DNA of 26,433 nucleotides from an uncultured Methanosarcinales archaeon (GTDB lineage Archaea; Nanobdellota; Nanobdellia; Woesearchaeales; CAZYIM01): positions 1-26,433 of the forward strand of contig CAZYIM010000034.1 in NCBI GenBank assembly GCA_964647565.1. The letters are read 5' to 3'. Positions 5,850-26,433 of the stretch are shown in pieces; position 1 is the first letter of the stretch, and each line of letters opens with the position of its first letter. Both the position numbers and the translations under genes were made by a program. A model generated the notes under the pieces. It did no database searches, had not been told where the DNA came from, and saw only the letters and a program-made list of their open reading frames with translations.

Positions 5850-6448
5850 TGATGAAACCCATCCCAGATATCATATCAGAATTCAAATTTTCCCACCAAG
5901 AAATGTATGAACAACAGATTGTATATGCAGATCCTGCTTCTGATAATTGCCTCAAAGAGACACATAATCTCAATACCCGATTTTTCTTCAATAAAGAGCA
6001 GACCATCGCGTATCTTTATGGTGAGATTGAGCGTCCTAAATTATCCGGGATTGTAAGCGAAGATATGGTCCAAGAAATACTTGAAGAAATAAAAGCTCTT
6101 TCATTGAAAGTTTGGGCATATTCTGTCTTTAAAGACGGAACCGAGTTAATAACAGGCAATCATGGCTTTATGAATGAACCTGAATTGTCAGATTATGACA
6201 TTATCTATGGTATTGATTATGAAGGAATGATCTTATATGATGCAGGAGAACCAGATGTTCGCAATGTGCTAGGAACTCACAAATGGCGCATCGAAGATCT
6301 CGAAGTCATCAAGGATCCTAGATTAGCTTATAGGTTTGCAGATAAATTCAAAGAAATCAATAAGTGGGCAAGCCAGCAGAATCTAGCAGATGAAATCGAA
6401 CCGCTTATTACAACAGCCAGTCCAGCCCCTTCTCAACAGTCTTTTTGA
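5849..6448 (+). CDS. Hypothetical protein (acidic, 199 aa)
   Basis: TAATG overlap with the phosphoesterase stop (translational coupling) and natural-looking composition. No motif recognised. Its 3' end overlaps the convergent gene by 41 nt. Confidence 0.7.
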   Translation: MMKPIPDIISEFKFSHQEMYEQQIVYADPASDNCLKETHNLNTRFFFNKEQTIAYLYGEIERPKLSGIVSEDMVQEILEEIKALSLKVWAYSVFKDGTELITGNHGFMNEPELSDYDIIYGIDYEGMILYDAGEPDVRNVLGTHKWRIEDLEVIKDPRLAYRFADKFKEINKWASQQNLADEIEPLITTASPAPSQQSF

Positions 6449-6986
6449 TCTTGTGGATTATCTTAGGGTTCATTTCTTGCATGGCATTTCCAATCCTGAA
6501 TGCTTTTGCAGAGAAACCACAAAATTTGAGAGTATCATTAATCAGCACTTTTGTTGCCCTGGCACCACCAATTAAGTCTGCGATGAACAGAGGTGCACCC
6601 CGGGTACAAAAAACAGCCGCTTTATGGCCTTTTAACAATCCTTGTGGACGGTCATTCTTAAAAGTGTAAGCAAAATTATTTGTAAAAACCCTATCAACAA
6701 ATCCCTTAAGAATCGCGGGCATGTTGTTCCACCATGTCGGATATATGAATATCAATTTTGATTCTTTCATCTTATACTGGATAGCCTTTATGTCTTTTGA
6801 AAGTTTGCTGGCTTTTTTATCTGTTATTAGTTCATTTGCCTTTAAAACCGGATCAAAGTTCATCTTGTAGAGGTTTAAGACTTCATATTTCTGTTTTCTT
6901 TTGGTCAACTCCATTGTAAGAATATCAAGTAATGCATAGCAGTGGCCTTCCCCAGGCGGATGTGCATAAATGATCAGTATATTCAT
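6408..6986 (-). CDS. NAD(P)H-dependent oxidoreductase, flavodoxin-like fold (Flavodoxin_2; MdaB/KefF/NQO family)
   Basis: ILIIYAHP, LNLYKMNFDPVL, IYPTWWNNMPAILKGFVDRVF and GLLKGHKA. SD AGGTGA at 6996-6991. Confidence 0.92.
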   Translation of the reverse strand: MNILIIYAHPPGEGHCYALLDILTMELTKRKQKYEVLNLYKMNFDPVLKANELITDKKASKLSKDIKAIQYKMKESKLIFIYPTWWNNMPAILKGFVDRVFTNNFAYTFKNDRPQGLLKGHKAAVFCTRGAPLFIADLIGGARATKVLINDTLKFCGFSAKAFRIGNAMQEMNPKIIHKIKKTVEKGLDWLL

Positions 6987-7019
6987 TGTATCACCTAAGC
7001 ATATTCTTTTTGACGATTA

Positions 7020-7091
7020 CTAATAAAGTTTTTGATTGAAATACATTAATTTTTATCACTAATAAGTAACTAAAATCGAAACATTTAAATA
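7020..7091. promoter_or_regulatory. Divergent archaeal promoters (oxidoreductase / 7116 ORF)
   Basis: Plus strand AAAATCGAAACATTTAAATA (TATA 7084-7091) lies 24 nt before the leaderless ATG 7116. Minus strand CAAAAACTTTATTAG (about 7034-7020) is a weaker TATA for the oxidoreductase. Confidence 0.65.
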
Positions 7092-7115
7092 TACATTTCA
7101 CCAATAACATATAAT

Positions 7116-7445
7116 ATGGGACATATTAATCATCAAACCAAGGGAAATCAACTAACTTTGAATGAAATTGATATTCTTAAGACCATGAACATTGCCTACA
7201 TTAAAAATGATAAACAAACACTAGCAAAAGCTACTGAATCCTCAAAACAACCCGAAGTTTTTTATCAAGGTATCAACCAATTACTCGAGTTAGGAGCTCA
7301 CGACCAGATTGTTAATGTGGTAAAGAATCGACCAGTCGGTGTCCGGGCTCAATTATTACAATATTATGTGGAAACACAAAATTTCTTGTATGCTAGTGTA
7401 ATAGCAAGCATGGGCAATGGCATCAAGATTCCTTATAAGAATTAA
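7116..7445 (+). CDS. Hypothetical protein (109 aa, probably alpha-helical)
   Basis: ORF placed at the leaderless distance from a clear BRE-TATA. No motif recognised. Confidence 0.7.
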   Translation: MGHINHQTKGNQLTLNEIDILKTMNIAYIKNDKQTLAKATESSKQPEVFYQGINQLLELGAHDQIVNVVKNRPVGVRAQLLQYYVETQNFLYASVIASMGNGIKIPYKN

Positions 7446-9703: not shown

Positions 9704-11119
9704 ATGAACATGCATGATATGGTTCGGGAAAAAAAGGAAGGTCAACGCACAATAATCAAACCAATTCAGTATCCTACGTTTAGGATCGATAAGCTTAGGA
9801 TCACTCCTAATGCAATGGAAAAGTTATTTCTCTATAGAGATCTACATGATGACCTAACAAGCTCAGGAGATGAGTTTTTTGGTTTCCAAATTAAGCGTTA
9901 CGACGAAAAAGTACCTGGATTATATAGCCTTACACGGGATCTTGTATTAGGTAAAGATCAGGTCAATCATGGATCTCATACTTTGGTGAGAGCTGCACAA
10001 GTACAGGAAGTCATGAGAAGCCTGCATGGGACTGGAAATGGTCCTTGCGGTTGGTGGCATAGGCATCCTGGAAGTTATAGAAGCAGTTCTGGAGAGGATT
10101 TAGGCAATAATCCTATTGTTCTTGAGGGAATACAAACTCATAACCAAGTCCTAGATTACATGATAATACCAATGGATCACATGAAATACGAACTCGAGGA
10201 TTCTGATGATGGAGCTGTGCTTATTTGCACTGACAAGAGGGATCACGGAGAGTATATCATTGATTTGCATTGTACAATAGCAGAGGCCAAGGACAAGCTA
10301 CCTGAAATGAAGAAAAAGAGAATTCCTGTAAAATTGGCATATGCCCATAGTATGATAGTTGCTGGCAAAGATCGGACACCAAATAAGGTCTACACTGAAG
10401 TTATAACCCGCCTATTCCATGGCAACGATCCTAATATCCAAGAAGAGAAGAATGGTAGAGACGGAGGCCTTAGGACCAAGATCGAAATTGTCGAGGTTCC
10501 TGATGATATTATTATTAATAAGGATACAATGGTCAATGAACTTACTGAAAATATCTATATCAAGAAATTCCATAAGCATGGAATCCATTTAAACGTAGGA
10601 CGAGTATTCGGCGATGCTATGATTCATGAACACGACAGAAATTCGGTATATAAAAGATTCCGGGGAGGTTATGAGTTTGTTCATGATCATGATGATAAGA
10701 TTAGCAAAGAGACGTGGATTGAAACTGCAAAACCCTATTTATTGGATCATTTATCACTTCAAGAAGTTAATGAATGGGAAGATAAGGTCCTGAATGAGAA
10801 AAAGATCCCTATCATCGAGAAAGTGACTAGCATTCTCAAAGATGAAAAGACTATTGCAGACAAGGTCACAGATGAAGCTGCAACAAAGGATAAAACTGTT
10901 ACAGCAGAAGATGCTGTTGTTGATAAAACCAAACCAGAATTGGGAAAAATTAATCCATTTATGAAATTTGTATATGCAATTTTCAAACCAAGCAAACTAA
11001 ATAAAAAAGATAACAAGCAACTTGCGAAGGAATACAGAGCAGATAATGGTGCCGAACCTGTCAAAGCAAAGACTGATGCAACTAAAAATGAAGACACCCC
11101 AAATAAGGGAGTAAATTAA
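9704..11119 (+). CDS. JAB/JAMM (MPN+) metalloprotease, putative deubiquitinase / Ubl-maturing enzyme
   Basis: Exact JAMM motif E57...H119-x-H121-x7-S129-x2-D132 (GDEFFGF...GWWHRHPGSYRSSSGED), preceded by the typical LRITPNAMEKL strand-helix. SD AGGGTGA. Confidence 0.88.
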   Translation: MNMHDMVREKKEGQRTIIKPIQYPTFRIDKLRITPNAMEKLFLYRDLHDDLTSSGDEFFGFQIKRYDEKVPGLYSLTRDLVLGKDQVNHGSHTLVRAAQVQEVMRSLHGTGNGPCGWWHRHPGSYRSSSGEDLGNNPIVLEGIQTHNQVLDYMIIPMDHMKYELEDSDDGAVLICTDKRDHGEYIIDLHCTIAEAKDKLPEMKKKRIPVKLAYAHSMIVAGKDRTPNKVYTEVITRLFHGNDPNIQEEKNGRDGGLRTKIEIVEVPDDIIINKDTMVNELTENIYIKKFHKHGIHLNVGRVFGDAMIHEHDRNSVYKRFRGGYEFVHDHDDKISKETWIETAKPYLLDHLSLQEVNEWEDKVLNEKKIPIIEKVTSILKDEKTIADKVTDEAATKDKTVTAEDAVVDKTKPELGKINPFMKFVYAIFKPSKLNKKDNKQLAKEYRADNGAEPVKAKTDATKNEDTPNKGVN

Positions 11120-11152
11120 GAAATAGAAATTAAAACGAGAACATAAGAAAAA

Positions 11153-12691
11153 ATGAGTGAAGATAGGTATTCAAGACAGAAAAAAATAGAAGGCTGGGAC
11201 CAGCAGATGCTGGAAGATGCCAATATAGCTATGGTAGGTGATGGGTCAGTCGCATGTTTTGGCGGAGCCTTGATGGCTGCACTGGGTATTGGAAGATCCT
11301 GTCTTTATGGTAATTCCAGATTCAAGGGATACCACCCTGATGAGTTTATGTATGCTGAACTTACCAAAGGCAAGAGAAAGGTCAGGGGACTTGAACAGAG
11401 TATGAAACAGATCAATCCAACTATTGACGTAGAAAGCTATCGTTGGGCATTTCTCAGGGACTATTTCACAGACATCTTCTCAGATAATACATCTGCCATA
11501 TTTGACACTACCAATGATCCCCGGACTGAGGCTGCCTTGTTCTCTCATGCAATGACTGCAGATGTGCCTATTGTGAATGCATCTTGTAAAAAATTCAGGG
11601 GAGAATTGTCTGTCTATATGCCTACTGGAGAATTCAAGCATCTAACCTCTTTAGATCATGAAGAAATCACAAAGGAAACACCTTATCAGCTACTATCAAG
11701 AACCTATAATACCAGAATGGAACAGGATCCTGTTACAGCCTCTTTAATTGCAGGTTTAGCAGTCGATGAGATCAGGAAGATTGTCATGCCCTTGAAATTC
11801 GAGACTGTTAAAGATCAAAACGGTAATAAGATACGGAAAAGCAAGGAGCCGACACTTGAAGGCAGGCTTATCTATGACATCCTGACAGATGATCTGGTAC
11901 ATAGGACAACTAAGTTAAAATCAGGATTTCAACGCGTATACCATCCTGGAAATTTTCAAAATGATATTGTGGCAGCAGTTGTCGGAGCAGGATCTCTTGG
12001 AAATGTTGTAAGTCTACTACTGACTATTATGGGCATTAAACATTATATATTCGACAAGGACATCTATGAGGATGCTAATGTCAACAGACAGATCATGGCA
12101 GTGCTTTACGGTAACGATGTTGGAAAAGCCAAAGCATTATCACTCGCTGAAAAAGACCAGAGGATCAATTATAGGACCAAGGTTGTTGGTGTAAATGATT
12201 GGTTTACACCAGACACCAAGTTCAAGGGCAGGCAACCAGACGTCATATTTGATTGCACCGATAAATACACAGCAATGGAGGCTATTAACTATTGGTCCAT
12301 AAAGAATAAGAAACCCGTCATCACAGGCCATACAGGACCTACAGACGGCCAGACATTTTTCTCTGATATTTATAATGGCATGGAATGTCTTGATGGAAGG
12401 ATGAATGTTATTGAAAATGCTAACATTGAACGAAATCCGGAAAGTTGCATACAGCAATCCAACCCATCTGTAATTATCGCGAACTGGATCATGGGTTCAG
12501 TCATGGTCGATCTCTTCAGGAGATATGCCATGGGTTTACCTGTTGTCAGCTCAAGAGTTAAGTATGATACTAATATTGGCAACAGATTGGCTTCATTGCC
12601 TAACACAACAATGTGCAGATACAAGGATTCTGATGATACAAAACATTACAAGAAATGCGATCACATTGATTATTGTAAATTCGAGGTTTAA
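11153..12691 (+). CDS. E1-like activating enzyme with two tandem ThiF/MoeB adenylation domains
   Basis: The N-terminal domain (DRYSRQ...GWDQQMLEDANIAMVGDGSVA) has a degenerate nucleotide loop. The second domain has intact VVGAGSLG (G278), FDKD..EDANVNRQ, GKAKA, DVIFDCTD and a candidate catalytic Cys432 in PESCIQQSNPS. Confidence 0.92.
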   Translation: MSEDRYSRQKKIEGWDQQMLEDANIAMVGDGSVACFGGALMAALGIGRSCLYGNSRFKGYHPDEFMYAELTKGKRKVRGLEQSMKQINPTIDVESYRWAFLRDYFTDIFSDNTSAIFDTTNDPRTEAALFSHAMTADVPIVNASCKKFRGELSVYMPTGEFKHLTSLDHEEITKETPYQLLSRTYNTRMEQDPVTASLIAGLAVDEIRKIVMPLKFETVKDQNGNKIRKSKEPTLEGRLIYDILTDDLVHRTTKLKSGFQRVYHPGNFQNDIVAAVVGAGSLGNVVSLLLTIMGIKHYIFDKDIYEDANVNRQIMAVLYGNDVGKAKALSLAEKDQRINYRTKVVGVNDWFTPDTKFKGRQPDVIFDCTDKYTAMEAINYWSIKNKKPVITGHTGPTDGQTFFSDIYNGMECLDGRMNVIENANIERNPESCIQQSNPSVIIANWIMGSVMVDLFRRYAMGLPVVSSRVKYDTNIGNRLASLPNTTMCRYKDSDDTKHYKKCDHIDYCKFEV

Positions 12692-12703: not shown

Positions 12704-14614
12704 ATGAAAAAGGACGATAAAAAATCAAAACTGCATGAGTATTTTCTAAGTACTGCAAAAGACGAGGAGGATGAACAAGTACCTGAGGAAGTCAAAAGGA
12801 TGTATCTTCTTTGGTCTCCTACCGACATACAAAGAGCAAAAGACCGCTGGCAGAATCTTAACAGGCACGACCTTTACAAGATCTTGGCTGACCAGCATGA
12901 AAAATTGATTAAAAAGGGTGAAGAACGTCCTCTTACAGATGAAGAAAAGAAGGGTATTTTTGAAAAGATAAATGCTCTCAACCCGTTCATTGACCAGGCT
13001 AATGGAGACGAGACAATGAAAAAAGATCTTGTCCAGATTGCTTCTGACCACGGTCTTAACCCAAAAGACTTGGTAGTGAGAGCAGCTCAATATCTAAGTG
13101 GAAAAATCGATCCAAACTCACTTAAGAGATATGAGAAAAAACTTCATGAAGAGATGATCAAGACCAGGAAATCTGGTTTCAAGGAGGCAAAAAGACGGGG
13201 CATGCAAGAATGGAAGGAGCAGTTCCGCCCTAACCGGATCATCATGAGAAGGACCTTGCGAGCATTAGGTATTGTTGCTGCACTTGGAATTGCATTTGCA
13301 TTTTACACTTCTTTTAAGTCGGAGAGAGCCAAGAGAAATTTCTATGACAAAGTAGTCGAAGAGGTGCGCGGAGGAGGTTCTGGCGCTGATGCTAGGCAGT
13401 CTCAGGTTGATGATAATTATACTCCTAAAGAGCATCTTGACAACATTGTCAAAGGGATTACAGGTAGTCAAGATTCTACTGAAGTAAAAACTGAGCAGAG
13501 ACAAGAACAGCAAAGACCTCCCGTGGAAAAGCCTAAACCAAGGCCGCCTGCAACAATATCTTCAATTGTTGATTCTGTATACAAGCAGATCAAGGATGAC
13601 AATCTGAAGGCCCAGACTTTCAAGGTCAATCCTGTTAATGTCAGTTATACTAATCTCACCAATAGCGGATCTGTATCAAGACTTAAAAGAGCCCTTGAGA
13701 TGGAAATAGGTAATCAAAGCTATGTGACGACCATAAGCAAGGCAAGACTTGCACAAAAAATAGATAGTTTAAAAAACATTGTTTCAGACTATCCTCAAAG
13801 TCAACAGGCATATGAGGCCCAGCTTGAAGTTGCTAAGCTTTCTTTTGAGCATATGGAGATACTAAATGTAGATGGCTTTAAAGAGTATCAACAGTTAATA
13901 ACTCTCTTTGGAAATACTAAGGAGATTTCTACTAATTTCATGAAAGTTTTGATAGACAGGAAGTGGGCAGCGGATTGGTGGAAGATACAACAGTCAGACC
14001 GACAGGAATCTGCTGTCGCCCAAAAGAGCAGGATAGCTAATAAAATTGTCCAGTGGCTTGAGAATCAAGCTATCAAAACCAATCCTGTTGGTTACGAAGC
14101 AAACTATATACTAGGTCAGATTTTAGCAGGAGAAAAAGAGCTGCAGAGCGTTTATCAAAAAGATGCAAATGACTTAATATACCTTCACACAGAATTCCTT
14201 TCTAGTGTTTCAGGATTAGACAAATCAAATAATGCGATGCAGGCAAGATATTCTGCAAGTGCAAGGGGAGGCTGGGATCGAGCTGCTCGAGCCAAGTTTT
14301 CTTATGCAGTCGGTTCAGGACGAAATAATGGTAGCAAACTTAAGAATCTTGCAGATGCCTTGAAATATGACCAGAAGGCCCGATGGGTTCCAAGAGCAAT
14401 TTATCTGATAGCAGAGACTGAAGTTCAGATGAAGAATATGGATCTGGCTGAAGACTGCATGAATTTCTTACAGAAAAATTTCCCAGGTAATGAATCCAGT
14501 GGAGTCGGAAGTCTTGTAAGGCAGATATCAGATTACAGAGCAAAACAGGTTGAGGTGGCAAAGGCTAAGTCGGAAGCTGATTATAAAAAACTAAAGGAGA
14601 AAAGTCGTAAATAA
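12704..14614 (+). CDS. Single-pass membrane protein with a charged N-terminal domain and C-terminal TPR-like repeats
   Basis: Basic stretch then hydrophobic ALGIVAALGIAFAFY (about residues 187-201), a Pro/Gln linker, and BamD/YbgF-like TPR signatures IVSDYPQSQQAYEAQLEVAKL and AIYLIAETEVQMKNMDLAEDCMNFLQKNFPGN. Confidence 0.7.
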   Translation: MKKDDKKSKLHEYFLSTAKDEEDEQVPEEVKRMYLLWSPTDIQRAKDRWQNLNRHDLYKILADQHEKLIKKGEERPLTDEEKKGIFEKINALNPFIDQANGDETMKKDLVQIASDHGLNPKDLVVRAAQYLSGKIDPNSLKRYEKKLHEEMIKTRKSGFKEAKRRGMQEWKEQFRPNRIIMRRTLRALGIVAALGIAFAFYTSFKSERAKRNFYDKVVEEVRGGGSGADARQSQVDDNYTPKEHLDNIVKGITGSQDSTEVKTEQRQEQQRPPVEKPKPRPPATISSIVDSVYKQIKDDNLKAQTFKVNPVNVSYTNLTNSGSVSRLKRALEMEIGNQSYVTTISKARLAQKIDSLKNIVSDYPQSQQAYEAQLEVAKLSFEHMEILNVDGFKEYQQLITLFGNTKEISTNFMKVLIDRKWAADWWKIQQSDRQESAVAQKSRIANKIVQWLENQAIKTNPVGYEANYILGQILAGEKELQSVYQKDANDLIYLHTEFLSSVSGLDKSNNAMQARYSASARGGWDRAARAKFSYAVGSGRNNGSKLKNLADALKYDQKARWVPRAIYLIAETEVQMKNMDLAEDCMNFLQKNFPGNESSGVGSLVRQISDYRAKQVEVAKAKSEADYKKLKEKSRK

Positions 14615-14626
14615 AGAGGTTGAGCT

Positions 14627-16162
14627 ATGAAAAAATTCCTTAAACAGCTGGGATGGACTGCACTCCTTGGACTTGGATTGCTTACAGGATGTTCGAGTGA
14701 TGATGAAGTTGTTGAACCTGTTGTTGTTAATCCAAAAGATGCTTCTATTAGAGAACTAGTTGAACAAGAAGAGCTTTATAATGGCCAGACTGTGCGGACT
14801 TTTGGAAAGGTCGTTGCAATTTCTGACCATGATTATATAGAAAATCTAAATCCCCAGCACGATGTTACCATAAGGATATTAAATACTTTCTTGCACAAAG
14901 TCGATCTTTTTAGGACTTATAGTCTTGAAAAAGCTGATAAAGCAGGAATTGCCAGCTTTCAATCCGGCATGCTTGATCTAGAACAACTTAAAGTAACTCG
15001 CTCATCACTATCTGCAATAGGTTTGTTCAACAATGGAAAGATCAGGTACACCAAGCTTATCTCACCATCCGGAGATATCTTGTTTGAGCGACATGATATC
15101 CAACCTCAGGAATTCAGGGGCAAGATTGTTGATCTAAACCAGATGAAGTATTCTTCTGCTGGGGGAAGTACCTATTACCAGTCAACCCTAAAGCTGAAAA
15201 AAGAAGATGATAAATTTTTTTCATTTGTATTTAATCTGGCTTCTCTTAATGCTTATAATAAATATATTAATTCCAATGTTGTAGTCAAATGCACCCAGGA
15301 ACTTATCAACAATAAATCCTTTGTTGGTGAAGAGATTGAATATATAATGCCGAAACCTCCAGAGCTAGACAAGAAAAAAAGAGCCTTTTGGCAAAAGCTG
15401 GGTGGTGCAGAGGTTAGCGCAGAGCTAAAAGAACTTTATTCTGCCATTGGAAAAGAGGAAGCCCTTTTCAAGGATATAAAGAAGCAGGACAGGGAATTGA
15501 CTTTTGGCGCTGCAATGGTCGTCTATGACGAGTCAAAAAGGATATGGGATCTTGCTGTTGCTAATAATTGCAAGGAGCTGATAGATATCAGTGTTGATCT
15601 GACCAAAGAGGCAGCTTATTCTATGGTCAACCTGAAGGAATATGGCCTTGCTGCTGAGATGTTTAAGTCAAGAGCTATGGATGAGACAGGTTATGGAGTC
15701 ATCACTTCAGGTATTTACTCATTATCTGTTGACGGCAGACATTATGATGCTGCCCGGCTTGCACAAAGTTACAGGCTTGATGATGATGTAGCAACCCAGT
15801 ATGATAAGTGCATTGACCGCCTTTTGGACAGAGCTCTTTGGGCTGAAGCCTGGGATGTGATCCAGGAAGCTAATTCAGGCTTTGAATACAGGGAAAAGAT
15901 AGCAGAAATCAAGGAAGAATTATCTGAAAAACAACAGAAGTTTGCTGTTGGCGACAGCGTCCACACTTATGTTGATTATGCTTTACAGAATAACAAGAAT
16001 GCACGGTTTTATGGGCCTTCAATCAAGGATTTTTATGGCAGGATCGTCTCATTTCCAGATATTGGCCGTGCTGAGATCAATGGATGGCATGTGACTGCCA
16101 ATGATACCACCCAGTTCAAGGGCATTGTACCTGTTGACAGGATGAAGAAAAAGAAGGATTAG
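14627..16162 (+). CDS. Putative lipoprotein (possible OB-fold N-terminal region, helical-repeat C-terminal region)
   Basis: Signal peptide MKKFLKQLGWTALLGLGLLTG-C with lipobox LTGC. SIRELVEQEELYNGQTVRTFGKVV is OB-fold-like. SD AGAGGT. Confidence 0.72.
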   Translation: MKKFLKQLGWTALLGLGLLTGCSSDDEVVEPVVVNPKDASIRELVEQEELYNGQTVRTFGKVVAISDHDYIENLNPQHDVTIRILNTFLHKVDLFRTYSLEKADKAGIASFQSGMLDLEQLKVTRSSLSAIGLFNNGKIRYTKLISPSGDILFERHDIQPQEFRGKIVDLNQMKYSSAGGSTYYQSTLKLKKEDDKFFSFVFNLASLNAYNKYINSNVVVKCTQELINNKSFVGEEIEYIMPKPPELDKKKRAFWQKLGGAEVSAELKELYSAIGKEEALFKDIKKQDRELTFGAAMVVYDESKRIWDLAVANNCKELIDISVDLTKEAAYSMVNLKEYGLAAEMFKSRAMDETGYGVITSGIYSLSVDGRHYDAARLAQSYRLDDDVATQYDKCIDRLLDRALWAEAWDVIQEANSGFEYREKIAEIKEELSEKQQKFAVGDSVHTYVDYALQNNKNARFYGPSIKDFYGRIVSFPDIGRAEINGWHVTANDTTQFKGIVPVDRMKKKKD

Positions 16163-18705: not shown

Positions 18706-20481
18706 ATGCAAATGAGTAGTACACCATCAGAAATAAATGATGCAGATTTCAACAAACATCTGAAGAGTTCAATAAAGTATATGGGACAACAAAACTTCTT
18801 TGGTTTCCTGCCAAACCTACATTCAACGATTATCCCTCCAGAAGTTCCATTCATCGATCCTGTACAGTATAATACTGTAATGGCCTTTGCTGATTCTTGC
18901 GCAGCATATAAGGTTATCAAAGAAAAGATGTCATATAATCTACTTGATTATAACAAGGAAAGAACCGTAAAACCTACTAAGACTGAATTAGATGCTCAAG
19001 AAAGGTTGGTCCAGATATACAGTCTGTATGTAGCCACATCAATAGGCATGAAAAAGTTGGCAAATACAACTAATGTCCAGGAAGAAGCTACCATAAAACT
19101 AAAAAAAGAAGATTTTAAGCATTTCAATGAATTTGATTTCTCAAAACAAGGCTCCGACATGTTCAATCAGTTCGCAAATCATTATATAGGTCTTATTCTT
19201 AATGCCAACAAAGCTGGGAAAATCAGGAATGGTGCAGACTTCAATGTTTTTTCACAAGGTTATCTTGCATCTATAAATGAAAAGGCTAATTATGAAAAAA
19301 ATGACGGCATCTACAAACCGTTAATGGGAATAATTGAAGGGCAGCCTATAAGTCTTCTTGGTATGAATTTCAGGGGATTTCAAGAAGCATTGCTAAGAAC
19401 ACTCGATCCAGAATCTCTACCTAAACTCGAGTGGGTCATTGCCATGGATGCTGTCAAGGAAGCAGCTGTCCAGATGGTTGATAATATAATGTGCTATGAT
19501 TTTGAGGCCAAGAAAAACTCTCAGGATCCCTGCAGGCAGGTCATGTATGTTCCTGGCCCTTCAGGCTGTGGAAAGACCTTCACTGCAGAAGCTGTTCAAA
19601 GATATTTTATCGAACAAGGAGAACAATATAGAAAACCAACCAATGTGTTTACATTATCTCCGGACATGTTCAAGACATCTTATATGAATGAAGGTCCTAA
19701 CAACTTGATTGCTATATTTAGGGATAAGGTCTATACGCCAAATACCCTGAATTTCATGTACATTCCGGATCTGGACACAATCATTGCATCAAGAAGTGCT
19801 GCAAAAGCTGCAAACAGGATTGAAGATGCAAACCTTACAGGAGTCTGGTTCAGCCAGCTATCTGGCAGTAACCGACCAGATACAGGCAGGTGGATGATCT
19901 ATGCTGATACCAACTACCAGGTTAATGATCCAGCACTCTTAGGAAGGTTAGGGCAGCCGATAATTGCCTCAGGTCCAAAAACGCAGGATGACCTTATAGC
20001 TCTTATGCGAATTGAGTTGAAAGATGGATTCTTGCCTAATAAGAATTATGTTAAACTCAAAGATAAGGAATGGAAAGAAGTAGGAAAACTGGCTGAAGAA
20101 TATGCTGCAGAGGCTAATCTGTCTGGAAGAGATGTAAGAAACATTTGCGAGACTCTAAGTAATCATGCTAACCAGTTCAAGCTGCCAAAGGGTTTCCAGG
20201 GCTGGTCATATCAAAAACAACTTGATCATAAAGCTAAACACCAGGTTTACAAGCCAATAACAGCTGGGATGTTAAAAAAGGAACTTAATACCTATGTTGA
20301 AAGTGTGAAGGCTGCTGTGGACAGGGAACAAGAAGAGAAGAAAGCCAAGATCATTGAAGATCTGCATCTTACAAGAGAGGCTTATGCTTCTGATGAAGAA
20401 TCAAGGATAAGTCTCTTTAGAGAGTTGGCTGCTCAGATACCTAAAGATCAGATGGTAAGTATAATCAGGAAAGTTATCTAA
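18706..20481 (+). CDS. Classical-clade AAA ATPase with a degenerate Walker B
   Basis: Walker A GPSGCGKT (residues 284-291), pore-loop region KTSYMNEGPNNL, Walker B position FMYIPDLD, SRH-like DTNYQVNDPALLGRL and lid LSGRDVRNIC. The ~235-aa N-terminal domain is unassigned. Confidence 0.88.
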   Translation: MQMSSTPSEINDADFNKHLKSSIKYMGQQNFFGFLPNLHSTIIPPEVPFIDPVQYNTVMAFADSCAAYKVIKEKMSYNLLDYNKERTVKPTKTELDAQERLVQIYSLYVATSIGMKKLANTTNVQEEATIKLKKEDFKHFNEFDFSKQGSDMFNQFANHYIGLILNANKAGKIRNGADFNVFSQGYLASINEKANYEKNDGIYKPLMGIIEGQPISLLGMNFRGFQEALLRTLDPESLPKLEWVIAMDAVKEAAVQMVDNIMCYDFEAKKNSQDPCRQVMYVPGPSGCGKTFTAEAVQRYFIEQGEQYRKPTNVFTLSPDMFKTSYMNEGPNNLIAIFRDKVYTPNTLNFMYIPDLDTIIASRSAAKAANRIEDANLTGVWFSQLSGSNRPDTGRWMIYADTNYQVNDPALLGRLGQPIIASGPKTQDDLIALMRIELKDGFLPNKNYVKLKDKEWKEVGKLAEEYAAEANLSGRDVRNICETLSNHANQFKLPKGFQGWSYQKQLDHKAKHQVYKPITAGMLKKELNTYVESVKAAVDREQEEKKAKIIEDLHLTREAYASDEESRISLFRELAAQIPKDQMVSIIRKVI

Positions 20482-20482
20482 G

Positions 20483-22213
20483 ATGGATGATATCAGAAAA
20501 CTGATCGAAAAGAGACTAAGGGACAAGGTTAGAAAGCCTTTGCCTGATGATCCAACTAGTCCTCCGCCTGAAGAAGTTCAGGAATCAGAATCAAGCGAAC
20601 TTTATCCGCCTATAATAGGATCTGGAAGTGTAACAGCTTCATCTATTCGGGATTTGATCGAACAAAGAAACCGGGAACGTCATGGCATTGGTTCTCGACA
20701 AACTGGTTCTCAAACTAGACAGACCGGACCAGTAGAGCATCACGGCAGCGGTATGCTGGATAACATTAGGAACAGGAAGAAAAAGAAGTTCGATGCAACC
20801 AGGAAAAAGCGTAGCAATCCTTCGGAACTCTTAAGATCCAGCCATACATTGAAACTTCATGAATTAACCGGAAGCAAAGCAGAGGCTTATACCAATATAT
20901 TAAAAGAGATTGGAGCTTATCAGGATATTGTCAAGAAAGAGCCTAGTTTTGATTTTTCTCATTATGAGGTTGACAAGGGAGGCTGTGATAGGAGAATAAT
21001 GGAGATCGCACCTGATTATCTTGATAATCATATCGTCATTGTTACGCCGCACCAGAAAAACATGGATATTATTCGGAACAATTATTCATTCTTAGATCCT
21101 TTGCTTGAAGCCATCATGAATGGTGCTGCTAAAGAGACTATTGCAAGGATTGCCCCTCACGAACCATTATATGGGGAACTTAAATCAGGATTAGTAAATC
21201 TAATCGAACAATTAAATTTTGGAGCCAATCACATTGTTGATGAGGATTTTTTCTCAGTCACTTTATCACTTGACACACCAAAAAAAGCGATAAAGAAAAT
21301 GGTTGAGATCCAGAAGGATGTAAGCAAGATCCTTGACCAGGATAATGATGGAGTGCTTCAACTTCTGAATTACGATCTTGAGGATAAGATTGCATCTGCT
21401 TCTGCAGAGCTCAATGCAACTTATGTGAATATTACACCATTTATCCTTGGTGATGCAAGTGAGTTCATAGTTCAGGACATCTTCCCATTACAGCTAGAGA
21501 CCAGCTCATACAAGTTTTCAACTGATGAAATAGACATCTATAGTTTCAAGACCAATAAATATGTTTTTATATATTTTGACAAAGGGGAAGACACAGTAGA
21601 TAACAAGAACATAGATATCCGCAACTTTGTTGTCATAAATGGCAATGATCCAGACAACCTTCTAGCGTATCTAAGGGACTTGAAGTTCATTGATTATAAT
21701 TTCAATCAATTCTTTGTTGAAGAAAAGATGCAGCATATTGAGGCAAGGGACTTTGAAAGGTATAAACGTACTCAAATATCAGGATTAGCAGATGAAATTG
21801 ATAAGCTTGGCCAGGATAAAGATCATCATTCCGAACTCTATCATCAACTCAAAAAGGTTCATGATGATATTGCAAAAGATAATATTGGCAATGAAACCGA
21901 CTATCTTAAGACACTCCCTTTACAGGTCAAGATGCAGTTGATGTTTCCACGGGTAGACGATCCATTAGTTTATGAGATATTATCCAATGTAAATAAAAAC
22001 GAGATGTTGATGACATATTCATGGGATACTTCTAAGTTCAAGTTGCAATTTGCTGCTGCAAAGCCCAAACAGCAAAAAGAGATGCTGCAGGAAGTGCTTG
22101 AAGGCATCAAATACGAAGATCAGTATAATCTTGCTGTCAATGAGTGGCTGCATGACAACTACAAACCTCTTTGCGACGAACTTAAAGTAAAGTTTAAGGG
22201 TGGTGAGCAATGA
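20483..22213 (+). CDS. Hypothetical protein, DUF6638-like core with a disordered N-terminus
   Basis: Starts 1 nt after the AAA stop, with ~115 low-complexity residues. The following AEAYTNILKEIG...HYEVDKGG...DYLDNHIVIVTPHQK...YGEL resembles my recollection of the DUF6638 N-terminal pattern (unverified). Confidence 0.55.
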   Translation: MDDIRKLIEKRLRDKVRKPLPDDPTSPPPEEVQESESSELYPPIIGSGSVTASSIRDLIEQRNRERHGIGSRQTGSQTRQTGPVEHHGSGMLDNIRNRKKKKFDATRKKRSNPSELLRSSHTLKLHELTGSKAEAYTNILKEIGAYQDIVKKEPSFDFSHYEVDKGGCDRRIMEIAPDYLDNHIVIVTPHQKNMDIIRNNYSFLDPLLEAIMNGAAKETIARIAPHEPLYGELKSGLVNLIEQLNFGANHIVDEDFFSVTLSLDTPKKAIKKMVEIQKDVSKILDQDNDGVLQLLNYDLEDKIASASAELNATYVNITPFILGDASEFIVQDIFPLQLETSSYKFSTDEIDIYSFKTNKYVFIYFDKGEDTVDNKNIDIRNFVVINGNDPDNLLAYLRDLKFIDYNFNQFFVEEKMQHIEARDFERYKRTQISGLADEIDKLGQDKDHHSELYHQLKKVHDDIAKDNIGNETDYLKTLPLQVKMQLMFPRVDDPLVYEILSNVNKNEMLMTYSWDTSKFKLQFAAAKPKQQKEMLQEVLEGIKYEDQYNLAVNEWLHDNYKPLCDELKVKFKGGEQ

Positions 22214-23088
22214 GAAGAGGCAGAAGCACGATTGGTTTTGAATTGACGCTATCTGTTTTAGTTTTAGGATTAGTTGGAGCCGTTCTTTGGCCCAAAATAA
22301 GTGAAAAAAAAAAGCAAAATACAATAGCTGAGAAAGTAAGATCTGCAAAGCAGGTCACTAGAGTGGTCAAGCAGCATGAATCTTCATATGCAATCTCAGA
22401 TGCCAAGTTGCTCAATGTCAATGAGGGTGTTGTTGACTTCAAGACTAAAGAAGGCAAGCCAGGAAGCAGGATGTACAAGTTATGCATATTTCAAACTGAT
22501 AATGATCCTAAATATTTCCTTCTTCCAGCACCTCAAGCTTTAGCACCGATGAAAAAATATGTTATTCAATATAACAACATATATAGGGTCTCAGATTTTA
22601 CGACAGAACGGTTTGTTAACCAGCATATTAACTCTACCTACATCACAGAAAGTGATAAGATTATTGATCCTCAACTTGACGGCGTTATAACCAATCTAGA
22701 CCTTAATGAAAAAACATGTACAAACTCATTGGCTACAGAGGCCACTAAACATCTGCCTGCAGCAAAATTCCTCTACTCTACCAACGATATGATCAAGTAT
22801 TATGATGAAGAAGGGAATACAGGCACACATTTCTACCAGCTTTGTACTTTTCAGATAGGCAACCAGATCACTGAGCTGTTGAATCCTAATCATAAAGCAT
22901 TATGGCCAAACAGGATGTATGAAATCGAGATCGATGAGGTTCATAAAAATCCGCAAACATTCACAACAGGTAACCTCGCATTGATGTATGCGTCTAATAA
23001 ACTTGTAAAAGTTGTAGATAACAGATTAATCGATCCAAACCTGGATGGCGTAATCAAGGATATAAAAATGGTCGGGGTTCTACGATGA
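22210..23088 (+). CDS. Membrane-anchored protein with two copies of the array domain (paralog 1)
   Basis: N-terminal TM helix, then two repeats: AKLLNV...YKLCIF...LLP...IIDPQLDGVI and AKFLYS...YQLCTF...LLNP...LIDPNLDGVI. ATGA overlap with the upstream gene. Confidence 0.85.
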   Translation: MRRGRSTIGFELTLSVLVLGLVGAVLWPKISEKKKQNTIAEKVRSAKQVTRVVKQHESSYAISDAKLLNVNEGVVDFKTKEGKPGSRMYKLCIFQTDNDPKYFLLPAPQALAPMKKYVIQYNNIYRVSDFTTERFVNQHINSTYITESDKIIDPQLDGVITNLDLNEKTCTNSLATEATKHLPAAKFLYSTNDMIKYYDEEGNTGTHFYQLCTFQIGNQITELLNPNHKALWPNRMYEIEIDEVHKNPQTFTTGNLALMYASNKLVKVVDNRLIDPNLDGVIKDIKMVGVLR

Positions 23089-23675
23089 TGAGCCCCATGA
23101 TACGAAGAGGTTTAAAAGTAGCAGGAATTTTTGCTGGACTTTTTTTCGTTGGAGCCATGATAGTTGACATCGCTGATAGTTTCAAAAACAACAATACTGC
23201 AATAGCCAATAATGCACAACCAACTGCTCAAGAAGATTCTCTTGCAAGAGCTGTGGATGATACTAGCACAGGTTATGTAGATAGGATTGTTCGAATGATA
23301 CCTCCTCAAGCTGAGGTTTCATTAGAAGAGAACATACCTACTGCAAAGCTTATATCAGTACAAGATGATATTGTCTCTTTCTATAATCCAGATGATAGAC
23401 AAAGTAGTTACAGGGGAACCAGGCTGATCAAACATTGCTCATTCCAGGTTGGAACTGAGATAAGGGAATATTTGATGCCATCTGGCAAGGCATTGATACC
23501 TATGCGGATGTATGAACTCGATGTTGAGAAGCTGGAAAAACCAGAGGAATACACTGCAATAATGTTTGTCCAAAGATTTCTTCATGAAGATTACAGCTCA
23601 AGAGACAAGCGTGTCATTGATAAGAATCTTGATGGGATTATCTTAGATTATAAGCTTCTGGAGGGTCCAAAATGA
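23085..23675 (+). CDS. Membrane-anchored array paralog 2
   Basis: N-terminal TM helix and IPTAKLISV...CSF...YLMP...VIDKNLDGII. ATGA overlap. Confidence 0.85.
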   Translation: MMSPMIRRGLKVAGIFAGLFFVGAMIVDIADSFKNNNTAIANNAQPTAQEDSLARAVDDTSTGYVDRIVRMIPPQAEVSLEENIPTAKLISVQDDIVSFYNPDDRQSSYRGTRLIKHCSFQVGTEIREYLMPSGKALIPMRMYELDVEKLEKPEEYTAIMFVQRFLHEDYSSRDKRVIDKNLDGIILDYKLLEGPK

Positions 23676-24172
23676 ACAAACTGGCAACAGGATTGATGAT
23701 AGCAATGATGGGAATTACTCTTGGATACGCTCAAACTGAAGCCCTTGCAAGTTTACCAATTCAAGAAAAGGCTGCAAAAGAAGAAAAAAAGCCGGCGCTT
23801 GATAACATACCTGCTGCAAAGCTATTGGCAGTCAATCAGGATAATTTCATACTCTATCTAAAGGAGGATCATCGTGTTAGTGCAAGTAGGAATTTTCAAC
23901 TTTGTTCATTTTTAGTAGGAACAGAGATAAGGGAATATCTTTTACCTACTGTCAAGGCCTTAGTACCCATGAAGATGTATCAGCTTGAGATCAAGATAAT
24001 CAATAATGCAAAGAATTACAAAACAAGCAATCTTGCTACAGAAGGTCTCAATATTGATAGCTGGGAACTTAAAGATAATCGAGTAATTGACAAGAACCTT
24101 GACGGAATAATCATGGATTACAAACTTCTGAGAGGTCCAAAATGAGAAGGCTAGCAACTGGACTATTGATAT
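23612..24172 (+). repeat. Degenerate ~90-bp direct repeat spanning gene junctions 2/3 and 3/4
   Basis: GTCATTGATAAGAATCTTGATGGGATTATCTTAGATTATAAGCTTCTGGAGGGTCCAAAATGAACAAACTGGCAACAGG (from 23612) versus GTAATTGACAAGAACCTTGACGGAATAATCATGGATTACAAACTTCTGAGAGGTCCAAAATGAGAAGGCTAGCAACTGG (from about 24083). Confidence 0.8.
23672..24145 (+). CDS. Secreted array paralog 3
   Basis: Signal peptide MNKLATGLMIAMMGITLGYA (no lipobox Cys) and IPAAKLLAV...FQLCSF...YLLP...VIDKNLDGII. ATGA overlap. Confidence 0.85.
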   Translation: MNKLATGLMIAMMGITLGYAQTEALASLPIQEKAAKEEKKPALDNIPAAKLLAVNQDNFILYLKEDHRVSASRNFQLCSFLVGTEIREYLLPTVKALVPMKMYQLEIKIINNAKNYKTSNLATEGLNIDSWELKDNRVIDKNLDGIIMDYKLLRGPK

Positions 24173-24732
24173 CAACGATAGGACTGGGTCTTGGATGTCA
24201 GATAGACACAGATAATTCTTACGAGGATACATTCGCTCCTGTTGCCACTGAAGAAAAAGTTGAACCCACACCTGCTGAAAAGTTAGAAGAAAAAAGAAGC
24301 AAAGAAAGCGTAAAAAAAGAAGATGGTTCTGTTATGTTTATCAATACTAAGGAAGAATACACAATTGATGATATTGCAGAATCAAGTATCATAGATTTAC
24401 CTGGCGCAAAGTTAAATGGCTTTACCATTGACAATGTGGATTACTTATGGTGGATGACTACCGATCCTACAGGACACAGGAGATACCAAATGGTTGAGTT
24501 TCAGCTTGCAGAAGGTCCAACGCTTCTATTGTTGCCAAATGTTAAGCATCTAAATCCTCAAACAAGATATGACATTTCATATAAAAGATTACACGAGGAT
24601 GTCAAGCTAGACAAATATCTCTTTACAAGGATTTTCATCAACACAATATACACCTGCCTTGACAACCAACCAATGGATGAAAGCATCAAAGGCATTGTCA
24701 CCAGTATCAAACCAGTGGAGGGACTGAAATGA
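24142..24732 (+). CDS. Lipoprotein array paralog 4
   Basis: Lipobox GLGC and LPGAKLNGF...YQMVEF...LLLP...MDESIKGIV. ATGA overlap. Confidence 0.85.
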   Translation: MRRLATGLLISTIGLGLGCQIDTDNSYEDTFAPVATEEKVEPTPAEKLEEKRSKESVKKEDGSVMFINTKEEYTIDDIAESSIIDLPGAKLNGFTIDNVDYLWWMTTDPTGHRRYQMVEFQLAEGPTLLLLPNVKHLNPQTRYDISYKRLHEDVKLDKYLFTRIFINTIYTCLDNQPMDESIKGIVTSIKPVEGLK

Positions 24733-25229
24733 GAGCACTGGCAACAACTATGCTGGCAACAATGCTTAGTTTTTATGCAATGAGTTGCAGCACTCAAAAA
24801 AAAGAAGATAACGCCATCCCACCTTTGCCACCTATTGCTGCAGTGGCTGAATTAGACACTGTTTCAATTCCAGGAGCTAAACTCAGCTGGTACAACGATG
24901 GTTCAGCAGAATACATTCATGGAGATAGAAGTGGTAATACAAGCTACGGATTCAGCTCTTCAAGAGACTATCAACTATGTGACTTTGACATAGGTGGCAA
25001 GGATGTCAAGCTCTTGGCACCAAGAGTATACCAGATCACACCACAAAAACGCTATGATATCCAATACCTGCCGATGAAAGAGGGTCAATACCTGAACATA
25101 AAGAAATTCATCCATCTATTTGTCAGGAATGACAATATGGAAGATGTCAGGGTTCCTGATAATCATGAGATGGACAGGGACATAAGAGGCATACTTATCG
25201 ATATAAAACCAATGGAGAACATAAAATGA
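24729..25229 (+). CDS. Lipoprotein array paralog 5
   Basis: Lipobox AMSC and IPGAKLSWY...YQLCDF...LLAP...MDRDIRGIL. ATGA overlap. Confidence 0.85.
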   Translation: MRALATTMLATMLSFYAMSCSTQKKEDNAIPPLPPIAAVAELDTVSIPGAKLSWYNDGSAEYIHGDRSGNTSYGFSSSRDYQLCDFDIGGKDVKLLAPRVYQITPQKRYDIQYLPMKEGQYLNIKKFIHLFVRNDNMEDVRVPDNHEMDRDIRGILIDIKPMENIK

Positions 25230-25745
25230 ACTGGAAAAAAGGATTAATAATACCAGTGATAGGATTGACACTTCTAAGTTGTGCTTCTGATGAAAAGATT
25301 GAGCCAGAAAAGATGGAAAAGACATCCACGATCAGCTTAATAGAACAGAATATTGAAAAGGTACCATCTGCAAAACTGATTTCTGTTAATGATGGTTATG
25401 CAAATTATGCGTTTACAAAATCTAGTGGCGCATACCAAGGATTTGGTTATGGGAATTTTAGGCATTATCAATTATGTACGTTTTTAACTGCTCCCAATAA
25501 AATCGAAGCTTTGTTGCTGCCTGAATCTAGAGCATTGATGATCAATTCTAGATACAATTTAAACTATAAGAAATTAAAAAATCCTTCAACATTCACTGTT
25601 GAACAATTTGTCCATAGTTATGTCAGCAATACATTCACTGTTTTTGACAAGATAGAACTGATAGATCCAAATCTGGATGGAATTATAACCAACTTAAAAC
25701 CAATAAGGTAAAAGAAATGAACTGGAAAAAAGGATTAATAATACC
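25224..25745 (+). repeat. 31-bp exact direct repeat covering the start of paralogs 6 and 7
   Basis: AAATGAACTGGAAAAAAGGATTAATAATACC at 25224-25254 and 25715-25745. Confidence 0.9.
25226..25711 (+). CDS. Lipoprotein array paralog 6
   Basis: Lipobox LLSC and VPSAKLISV...YQLCTF...LLLP...LIDPNLDGII. ATGA overlap. Confidence 0.85.
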   Translation: MNWKKGLIIPVIGLTLLSCASDEKIEPEKMEKTSTISLIEQNIEKVPSAKLISVNDGYANYAFTKSSGAYQGFGYGNFRHYQLCTFLTAPNKIEALLLPESRALMINSRYNLNYKKLKNPSTFTVEQFVHSYVSNTFTVFDKIELIDPNLDGIITNLKPIR

Positions 25746-26199
25746 GTTAATCGGATTGAGCCTCTTGGCATGTGGTAAACAGGAACATATATTACCAGAA
25801 AAAAGGGGTCAAGCAAGTATCAGTACTATAGTAGTCAATGAGCAGATAAATGTTCCAAGAGCCAGGCTGCTCGGCGTAACAGATGGATTTGCAGGTTATA
25901 CATTTTCATATGGATCTGACTCAGATGATGAAAGTTTCGGCTACAGTCCCTTTATGCATTACCAGATGCCAACCTTCCTAATCGGCGATGAAAAGGTCTC
26001 GTTTTTGATACCCAATCCCGAACCTCTAGTGCCTAACTCAATCTATGAGTTTGAATACCAAAGGCTTTTGCCGAATAATCCTTTAATGTCAGAAGAGTTA
26101 ATCAAAGTCTATGTAGATAAGTCCTTTGACACACTTCACAACTATAAGCTTAGTGATAAACTAGTCGGCATAATCAATTATATAAAACCAATAATGTGA
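25717..26199 (+). CDS. Lipoprotein array paralog 7
   Basis: Lipobox LLAC and VPRARLLGV...YQMPTF...FLIP...LSDKLVGII. Confidence 0.85.
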   Translation: MNWKKGLIIPLIGLSLLACGKQEHILPEKRGQASISTIVVNEQINVPRARLLGVTDGFAGYTFSYGSDSDDESFGYSPFMHYQMPTFLIGDEKVSFLIPNPEPLVPNSIYEFEYQRLLPNNPLMSEELIKVYVDKSFDTLHNYKLSDKLVGIINYIKPIM

Positions 26200-26204
26200 A
26201 ACAA

Positions 26205-26433
26205 ATGAAATGGAAAACAGCATTAATGATACCCGTGATGGCAACTTTTTTAGCCTGCGGCGGTCAGAGGCATGTTGAACCTGAAGAAAAGGGAAAAGCA
26301 AGTATCAGCACTATTGCCATTGATGAACTTGTTAATATTCCAAGAGCAAAACTGCTTAGTGTAACAGATGGATACGCTGGCTACACATTTGCACATGAAG
26401 AAGGTGAAGATGCAACATACAGTTTCAGCCCAT
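26205..26433 (+). CDS. Lipoprotein array paralog 8 (3'-truncated; absent from the ORF track)
   Basis: Manual translation: MKWKTALMIPVMATFLACGGQRHVEPEEKGKASISTIAIDELVNIPRAKLLSVTDGYAGYTFAHEEGEDATYSFSP. Lipobox FLAC; close to paralog 7. Confidence 0.85.
   Translation, partial: MKWKTALMIPVMATFLACGGQRHVEPEEKGKASISTIAIDELVNIPRAKLLSVTDGYAGYTFAHEEGEDATYSFSP

Follow-up and report, generated by a model that had tools for sequence, protein, structure and literature searches.

What is made by a row of sixteen small exported proteins that share one domain and differ from each other most at a single hairpin? The question is raised by contig CAZYIM010000034.1 (here C34) of assembly GCA_964647565.1, from an uncultured Methanosarcinales archaeon that GTDB places within the Woesearchaeales. 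The window analysed is this entire contig, 26,433 nucleotides in length, and the assembly comprises 2.68 Mb in 86 contigs (completeness 86.9%, contamination 1.85%). A preliminary description of the window had noted, at its 3' end, a tandem array of at least eight paralogous exported proteins of an unrecognised family, with a loop likened to that of an antibody. As it stands, the locus is a lineage-specific expansion of paralogs without an assigned function; we tentatively read its products as a battery of binding modules tethered at the cell surface, and set out below the evidence for this and for its rivals.

The array and its shared domain

The open reading frame (ORF) list places seven complete genes, and an eighth whose 3' end is cut by the end of the contig, at positions 22210-26433 of the forward strand (Table 1). 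Together these hold eight complete copies and one partial copy of a domain of approximately 115 residues, with two copies residing in gene 1, of which it is solely the second half that the other copies align to. A hidden Markov model (HMM) was built from the eight complete copies and searched against all six-frame ORFs of the genome of at least 50 residues (n=16,237), recovering each copy with a domain E value between 1.8e-42 and 3.3e-39. The motif PxAKL...YQ.xxF...LLxP...RY...DxNLDGI was common to the domain in alignments A1 and A2. No repeats were found in the array at the DNA level, hence it is visible in protein only. The count of eight proteins and nine domain copies in the preliminary description was reproduced by the ORF list and the HMM, its shared motif is present in both alignments, and all eight of the variable segments that it quoted occur verbatim in the sequence.

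Overlaps of the ATGA type were located at six consecutive junctions (22210, 23085, 23672, 24142, 24729 and 25226). The overlap at 22210 couples the array to a gene encoding a 576-residue protein, which itself follows the gene of an AAA+ ATPase after a gap of one base.

Extent and history of the array

The proposal that the contig be extended also proved fruitful. The same HMM detected nine further copies at one end of contig C41, on the reverse strand, and one lone copy on contig C8, giving 19 matches in the whole genome. The first copy on C41 lacks its 5' end. A database protein, P0009 (158 residues), is identical to the cut gene of C34 at 76/76 residues, and its remainder agrees, as judged by eye, with the first frame of reversed C41. 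In addition, the last 147 nucleotides of C34 (window positions 26287-26433) and the first 147 of reversed C41 are 94.6% identical, with 8 mismatches. Given this bridging protein and the overlap between the contig ends, C34 and C41 were taken as adjoining, and the joined array has 16 genes with 17 domains in a row; inclusion of the lone C8 copy brings the genome total to 17 genes and 18 domains. The break between the two contigs resembles strain variation or end errors within an array gene, with no true gap.

On C41 the array is closed by the gene of a 434-residue lipoprotein, the start of which overlaps the last array gene. The C41 junctions in the ORF table are overlaps or gaps of approximately 3-10 bases, one of them varying with the start codon that is chosen. 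Such tight junctions suggest co-expression of all copies, and it is reasonably secure that the array proteins are made from one long, tightly packed operon.

Pairwise identities across the domain copies ranged from 16% to 62%. Adjacent copies tended to be mutual closest relatives (42-62% identity), and the copies fell into two subfamilies, one per contig half, both of which are what old tandem duplication would produce.

The lone copy on C8 (176 residues, leader ending WMAC) overlaps the start of an 88-residue gene (locus L002, positions 6372-7165, minus strand), the product of which has a C-terminal hydrophobic stretch followed by an acidic tail. This pair is flanked by a gene that appears Nudix-like from our own reading of the sequence, and by a membrane transporter-like gene.

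Export signals and anchoring

A signal peptide or membrane anchor is encoded at the start of each of the 16 array genes, as well as of the lone C8 copy, in keeping with the export first proposed for these proteins. The leader is basic and hydrophobic and ends in a small residue followed by Cys in 12/16 array genes as well as the lone copy, the endings including LLSC, LLAC, FLAC, GLGC, WMAC and WLAC. Relative to the lipobox pattern [LVI][ASTVI][GAS]C, these 12 have G, A or S at position -1 and Cys at +1. The other four comprise two anchor-length hydrophobic stretches, one plain signal peptide and one hydrophobic leader without Cys. The hydrophobic stretch of gene 1 spans residues 6-31, and a database version of gene 3 (P0013, 106 residues) begins at a more internal start and is without the signal peptide. 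Between the Cys and the domain lies a stalk of 20-60 residues in which Glu, Pro, Ser, Thr and Ala are abundant, with a predicted local distance difference test score (pLDDT) of ~50 in model 2, described below.

A crude regular expression returned 57 lipobox-like leaders genome-wide. The N-terminus of gene 1 (window 22210-22300, forward strand) consists of basic residues, the string G-F-E-L-T-L and then a long hydrophobic helix, loosely recalling what we take to be the motif of a prepilin-type (class III) signal.

Export and tethering to the membrane are thus reasonably secure for the array proteins, and from the leader sequences we infer that they may be lipidated and displayed at the surface. 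According to PMC12462473, lipobox proteins are prevalent in DPANN archaea, and a thioether-linked archaeol anchor has been shown in Haloferax.

Predicted fold of the domain

Structures of two paralogs were predicted with AlphaFold2. Model 1 is the domain of gene 6, a paralog with a long loop, and drew on the alignment of 18 copies; model 2 is a different, full-length paralog with a short loop, and drew on an alignment of 28 family members. Model 1 had a pLDDT of 87.7 and a predicted template modelling score of 0.79, its sole weak block (mean 59) coinciding with the variable segment, and model 2 had a pLDDT of 92-98 across the entire domain. Both consist of strands, one helix (residues 89-96 and 119-126, respectively) and closing strands. 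The oligonucleotide/oligosaccharide-binding (OB) fold is a small closed five-strand beta-barrel with a helix between strands 3 and 4.

Each model was compared with 48,161 chains by VIA-align, rows being assigned to the OB-fold by entry title, and the best 50 rows of both searches all read as OB-fold proteins. The leading match was PriB (3fhw_A) in both instances, with Z 9.0 (root-mean-square deviation (rmsd) 2.1 Å, 79 residues aligned) for model 1 and Z 8.9 (rmsd 2.7 Å, 81 aligned) for model 2. Other OB-fold rows included SSB, RPA, the MCM N-terminal domain and the anticodon-binding domains of aminoacyl-tRNA synthetases. Exported OB-folds were also among the rows, namely the superantigens SPE-C and TSST-1, the B chains of pertussis and typhoid toxins, SilF/SilB and NigD-like proteins. 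That the array domain is an OB-fold is, as a prediction from these models, reasonably secure.

The two models also locate the variable segment. In model 2, strands E47-67 and E70-82 form a tight hairpin (pLDDT 96-98) with its turn, G68-S69, inside the variable segment; in model 1 the same two strands, which end at residue 27 and restart at 39, are linked by an 11-residue coil with a pLDDT of ~59. Comparison of the tight short-loop hairpin with the long-loop coil indicates that the extra residues would be inserted into the tip of a long hairpin. The conserved scaffold bearing a variable hairpin, as surmised in the preliminary description, accordingly takes the form of a predicted OB-fold with the variable segment at the tip of a long beta-hairpin.

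Variability and selection

No 20-column window of the domain is less conserved than the variable segment (columns 33-52 of alignment A2), which has a mean pairwise identity of 11.8% compared with 31.3% elsewhere, so that the variability is enriched in the loop as had been claimed. The segment is 10-20 residues long, with an excess of His (5.6x), Gly (3.7x) and Ser (3.0x). Another, smaller site of indels was evident at A2 columns 109-112.

Ratios of non-synonymous to synonymous substitution (dN/dS) were calculated for the five closest paralog pairs. Synonymous sites were saturated even in these (dS 1.1 to infinite). The core gave dN/dS values of 0.09-0.22, indicative of a scaffold under purifying selection in every pair tested.

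Loci of diversity generation or antigenic variation are characterised by recent variation focused within a framework that is nearly identical among copies, or by a single expressed copy accompanied by silent cassettes. A diversity-generating, antigenic-variation or phase-variation locus was rejected here on the grounds of a framework of only ~31% identity, dS above 1 in the closest pairs and the lack of DNA repeats. A silent-cassette arrangement was rejected likewise, as each copy is equipped with a start and an export signal of its own, and the junctions between copies are tight.

Distribution of the family

Searches of Pfam, NCBIfam, PADLOC and PHROGs yielded no family match for the array proteins, and when the 28 members were compared with Pfam at E <= 5 no family matched more than one of them. 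The family profile matched none of the PDB sequences at E <= 1, and the ESM Atlas returned only scores of 0.76-0.77, which are under the level counted as a lead. The family that the preliminary description did not recognise is thus equally without a match in these libraries, which assigned the domain to no known enzyme family.

A profile search had also been proposed. The profile of the 18 copies was compared with 1.84 billion representative proteins and retrieved 23 at E <= 0.001, 13 of them from this organism: twelve are exact products of this genome, and the thirteenth is the gene bridging C34 and C41. The remaining ten (E 3.7e-16 to 5.8e-4) each form a singleton cluster derived from a metagenome assembly. 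These distant relatives are likewise built of leader, stalk and domain, and by our own reading Cys follows the leader in 6/10. One and the same longest contig (14,774 bp) is listed for three of them and another (26,370 bp) for two, which suggests that multi-copy loci of the family may occur elsewhere. A later search added two further relatives.

No member was found in 40 relatives, 400 genomes of the order or 400 genomes sampled from the phylum, these samples being overlapping. Metagenome scans with the 576-residue protein pair (alignment A4) and with six close copies (A5) recovered no relative, and genome scans with alignment A8 gave no match; alignments A2 and A3 had diverged too far to serve in scans by pattern. 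A 16-residue match in a metagenome-assembled genome of the Pirellulaceae (alignment A9) was rejected as chance, since the family HMM gives it no support. A literature search covering DPANN lipoproteins and surface paralogs, tandem arrays of OB-folds and host attachment retrieved no paper on the family.

Assignment of the contigs to the archaeon

The ribosomal RNA genes of the bin are archaeal, with the small-subunit (1405 bits) and large-subunit (938 bits) matches each being the top model of its clan. By tetranucleotide distance C34 ranked 44th and C41 50th of 77 contigs, and are hence compositionally ordinary for the bin, whilst an IMPDH gene on C34 is 49% identical to the IMPDH of a genome of the same order. 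The possibility that a bacterial contig had been misbinned was rejected on this ordinary tetranucleotide rank, the archaeal rRNAs and the same-order IMPDH match.

In bacteria, FlgD_ig / Por_Secre_tail serves as the C-terminal sorting domain for type IX secretion. A 643-residue secreted protein encoded on C8 (L002 2866-4797, minus strand) ends in this domain (E 5.8e-12 and 5.5e-07), and its gene adjoins a tyrosyl-tRNA synthetase gene that looks archaeal from our own reading of the sequence.

Genes around the array

A gap of 166 bp precedes position 16328, and from there into the array the gaps are of at most 52 bp. The genes of 374 and 399 residues probably start the transcription unit that runs into the array. 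The 399-residue protein was found in none of 200 genomes of the order. The best solved relatives of the AAA+ protein were spastin (3.5e-05) and Rpt3 (7.5e-05), and its ATPase core is preceded by ~280 residues without a family and followed by ~170. The 576-residue protein has no family match and a sole homolog, at 45% identity. None of the 374-, 399-, 591- and 576-residue proteins contains a long hydrophobic stretch, and these four upstream proteins are therefore probably cytoplasmic.

The 434-residue lipoprotein on C41 and the 511-residue lipoprotein upstream are unrelated to the domain and to each other and have no detectable family, the former having no homolog at all. Sequence searches of the PDB with the 467-, 229-, 471- and 434-residue neighbours returned nothing meaningful.

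Further upstream, a JAB-like protein (471 residues; PADLOC JAB, E 8.3e-05; H.H...S..D-type motif) adjoins an E1-like protein (window 9704-12691, forward strand). The latter has 512 residues, with two ThiF-like stretches (Pfam 3e-36) that resemble a fused pseudo-dimer. The three genes before this pair (109, 229 and 467 residues) gave no recognisable ubiquitin-like or E2 protein, family or solved relative. A 636-residue protein encoded within 12704-16162 (forward strand) contains a single membrane helix, at residues 184-205, and gave weak BamD/YbgF-like tetratricopeptide repeat matches below curated cut-offs.

Some 10 kb past the last gene of the OB-fold array, C41 carries a second tandem array (L001 2-4459, minus strand) of six adjacent genes of ~240-252 residues, the sixth of which runs off the contig end. 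Its genes have the common N-terminal pattern M.DW...IKKFL..E..., and none of the five scanned against Pfam was matched.

Table 1. Positions of the array, its variable segments and the adjoining genes in the 26,433-nucleotide window
Feature	Position	Strand	Details
Lipoprotein, 511 residues	14627-16162	+	Leader LLTGC; weak Slp-like match below curated cut-off
Two soluble proteins without family, 374 residues (coiled-coil-like, weak matches) and 399 residues	16328..18703	+	
AAA+ ATPase, 591 residues, classical clade	18706..20481	+	Pfam AAA, E 1.6e-07; one base before the 576-residue gene
Soluble protein without family, 576 residues	20483..22213	+	Stop overlaps start of array gene 1 (ATGA)
Array gene 1, 292 residues	22210..23088	+	N-terminal membrane anchor, then two tandem domain copies
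Gene 1 domain copies	22366-22725, 22726-23085	+	HMM domain E 3.3e-41, 1.8e-42
Gene 1 variable segments	22441-22473, 22801-22833	+	
Array gene 2, 196 residues	23085..23675	+	N-terminal membrane anchor, long linker, single domain; ATGA overlap with gene 1
Gene 2 variable segment	23382-23426	+	
Array gene 3, 157 residues	23672..24145	+	Signal peptide without Cys, single domain; ATGA overlap
Gene 3 variable segment	23858-23893	+	
Array gene 4, 196 residues	24142..24732	+	Leader ending GLGC (lipobox-like), acidic linker, single domain; ATGA overlap
Gene 4 variable segment	24445-24483	+	
Array gene 5, 166 residues	24729..25229	+	Leader ending AMSC, single domain; ATGA overlap
Gene 5 variable segment	24915-24968	+	
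Array gene 6, 161 residues	25226..25711	+	Leader ending LLSC, single domain (folded in model 1); ATGA overlap
Gene 6 variable segment	25409-25465	+	
Array gene 7, 160 residues	25717..26199	+	Leader ending LLAC, single domain; 5-base gap after gene 6
Gene 7 variable segment	25900-25959	+	
Array gene 8, 5' part	26196..26433	+	Leader ending FLAC; domain truncated after its first third by the end of the contig, remainder on C41 (reverse strand)

Possible functions of the array

Outside the cytoplasm, glycans, proteins or metals are the usual ligands of OB-folds. Considering this habit of extracytoplasmic OB-folds, the variation at a site that is a projecting loop, and the purifying selection on the tested copies, we favour, at somewhat less than an even chance, a battery of surface-tethered binding modules in which the hairpin tip sets the partner. 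Each gene would encode a small exported protein attached to the external side of the cell membrane, where a flexible stalk of 20-60 residues would carry one OB barrel, or two in the case of gene 1. The barrel would serve as a constant scaffold and the 10-20-residue tip, with its abundance of Gly, Ser, His and aromatic residues, as the main specificity element, such that paralogs would bind different partners, probably macromolecules on other cells or extracellular proteins or glycans. Both binding itself and the loop as the determinant of specificity are inferred.

Several observations weigh against the array being a set of binding modules. The upstream soluble AAA+ and unassigned proteins are not explained by it, and the tight packing of the 16 genes would suit one multi-subunit assembly no less than a repertoire. 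The same minimal segment of 10 residues, with the pattern G..[ST]H, recurs in eight of the 18 domains (seven from C41 and the lone copy), which leaves little loop diversity in half the family. The loop gave dN/dS values of 0.3-1.05 on just 23-47 non-synonymous sites, fitting relaxed constraint equally with diversifying selection; with so few sites and saturated dS, the paralog ratios are uninformative on selection at the loop. Lipobox positions -3 and -2 are mostly non-canonical (GLGC, AMSC, WMAC, YGGC) by comparison with the bacterial consensus. Lastly, the fold matches of Z 8-9 are within the range that VIA-align deems common in models lacking a clear relative, Z 7-8 often being the best score of a model without a true one, and Foldseek gave no match at E <= 0.001 in the PDB (both models) or BFVD. 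In light of these two results, only the fold class is claimed, and no kinship with any particular OB family. The description of the loop as hypervariable in the manner of an antibody could not be upheld, given the fixed segment in 8/18 domains, a framework that is itself only 16-62% identical, the saturated dS and a packing that points to joint expression and not to the selection of single genes in turn.

Tandem lipoprotein immunity genes are known beside secreted effectors, and the main rival, which we consider unlikely, is that the array constitutes a battery of inhibitors or immunity proteins. Tethered OB-folds would then shield the cell's own membrane, with their loops plugging secreted or incoming hydrolases or toxins. 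The two family-less lipoproteins that flank the locus, that of 511 residues and that of 434 residues overlapping the last array gene, would suit such a role, but scans of the family libraries revealed no peptidase, lipase or toxin family in any neighbour, no effector genes are interleaved with the array, and the family profile is without a solved structure at the threshold given above. Either of the two flanking lipoproteins may nonetheless be an enzyme of an unrecognised kind. A precedent for inhibitors, and equally for the binding modules favoured above, is offered by the potempins PotA, PotC and PotD of Tannerella forsythia, which, according to PMC9890683, are OB-fold lipoproteins of 98-132 residues that block peptidases via projecting loops. 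The array proteins match these in size, anchor type and fold class, yet the functional loops of potempins lie between strands 4 and 5 and not at the hairpin that varies here (PMC9890683).

A second alternative, and one that seems quite unlikely, is that the proteins are subunits of one hetero-oligomeric surface structure, such as a ring, fibre or layer, loop variation then reflecting the position of each subunit. In its favour, the linkage of 16 genes by overlaps and short gaps suggests joint and roughly equal production, whilst the two-domain fusion in gene 1 hints that the domains pair. The B oligomer of pertussis toxin is made of paralogous OB-fold chains from one operon, and SSB, PriB and the B subunits of AB5 toxins are OB-fold oligomers that feature among the structural matches. 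Conversely, anchoring is heterogeneous across the array and each subunit would stand on a long flexible stalk, and family scans of the operon genes revealed neither a catalytic 'A' partner nor an assembly gene.

It is highly improbable, in our estimation, that the array serves to capture typical OB ligands, either extracellular nucleic acid in the manner of SSB or metal ions in the manner of CusF/SilF. The best structural matches are binders of single-stranded DNA (ssDNA), SilF and SilB were matched at Z 7.7-8.1, and the variable segment is His-rich and ends beside Met or Cys in many copies. Against this, the isoelectric points (pI) of the domains range from 4.5 to 9.0 and so are not uniformly basic, the His, Met and Cys residues of one half of the array do not line up with those of the other, and there is no sequence relation to a solved SSB or CusF. 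To the same slight degree we would credit old, drifting structural or spacer lipoproteins, with the hairpin tip as the least constrained part of the fold and devoid of a specificity role, for which the saturated synonymous sites, the 16-62% identities, a loop dN/dS not above 1 and the other large paralog arrays in the genome may be cited, but which sits poorly with the low core dN/dS, every tested copy having been kept functional, and with the non-random Gly, Ser, His and aromatic composition of the loop.

Returning to surface-tethered binding modules, their most far-reaching form, to which we attach a very small probability, would be a germline-encoded repertoire: 16 co-expressed, lipid-tethered OB binders, each directed via one hairpin to a different surface molecule of a host or neighbour, with the co-transcribed soluble AAA+ module controlling their production or turnover. 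A repertoire of this sort, if true, would represent a recognition system of a new type in episymbiotic archaea. Little is known of how small uncultured archaea sense and hold other cells, and most of their surface proteins are without a known family. The locus offers a compact domain that is predicted with high confidence to fold well and should be easy to express, in 18 natural variants that differ most at one hairpin. Should the variants bind different partners, they would offer an entry point to the study of host recognition, and also a small natural scaffold for binding; should they instead be inhibitors, or subunits of a single structure, they would still represent a new family of exported OB-folds.

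Comparison with known systems

The ssDNA-binding OB-folds (PriB, SSB, RPA and the MCM N-terminal domain) gave the best structural matches and also have long beta-hairpins, the PriB, SSB and RPA rows scoring Z 8-9 with 72-83 residues aligned at 2.0-3.4 Å. These proteins are cytoplasmic and bind DNA, whereas the array proteins carry export signals and have the wide range of pI noted above. Membership of the SSB/PriB group was rejected because of the export leader in all copies and the lack of a Pfam SSB match or a solved sequence relative.

Exported OB-folds that bind glycans or proteins were matched at Z 7.7-8.6, comprising the AB5 B subunits (pertussis and typhoid toxins), the OB domain of staphylococcal and streptococcal superantigens, and the staphylococcal superantigen-like (SSL) proteins. 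The ptx and ssl loci likewise encode paralogs side by side. The array differs from these in having no A subunit, beta-grasp domain or sequence relation, in its archaeal host, and in products that are tethered and not released; family library scans of the other genes in the operon found no toxin or enzyme family that could stand for a catalytic A subunit.

With regard to the anchor, the archaeal lipoproteins lipidated through AliA/AliB similarly have a signal peptide ending in a small residue and Cys, though what PMC12462473 defines is the anchoring pathway of these proteins and not the array domain.

The potempins are the closest functional precedent located in print. As described in PMC9890683, they too are small (~100-130 residues) single OB-folds, with an anchoring lipobox Cys of the sort predicted here, occur as several paralogs per genome, and carry their function on projecting loops of the barrel. 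The same source (PMC9890683) places them at the bacterial outer membrane, each directly upstream of its own peptidase and with its functional loop between strands 4 and 5, and reports their structures as deposited. The array, by contrast, has 16 copies in a row in an archaeon, with no peptidase recognised nearby and a different variable hairpin, and its proteins have no sequence relation to the solved potempins, in line with the blank PDB search reported above. The protein family is undescribed, but it is of a kind familiar from bacteria, namely a lineage-specific tandem expansion of small tethered surface proteins built on a known fold.

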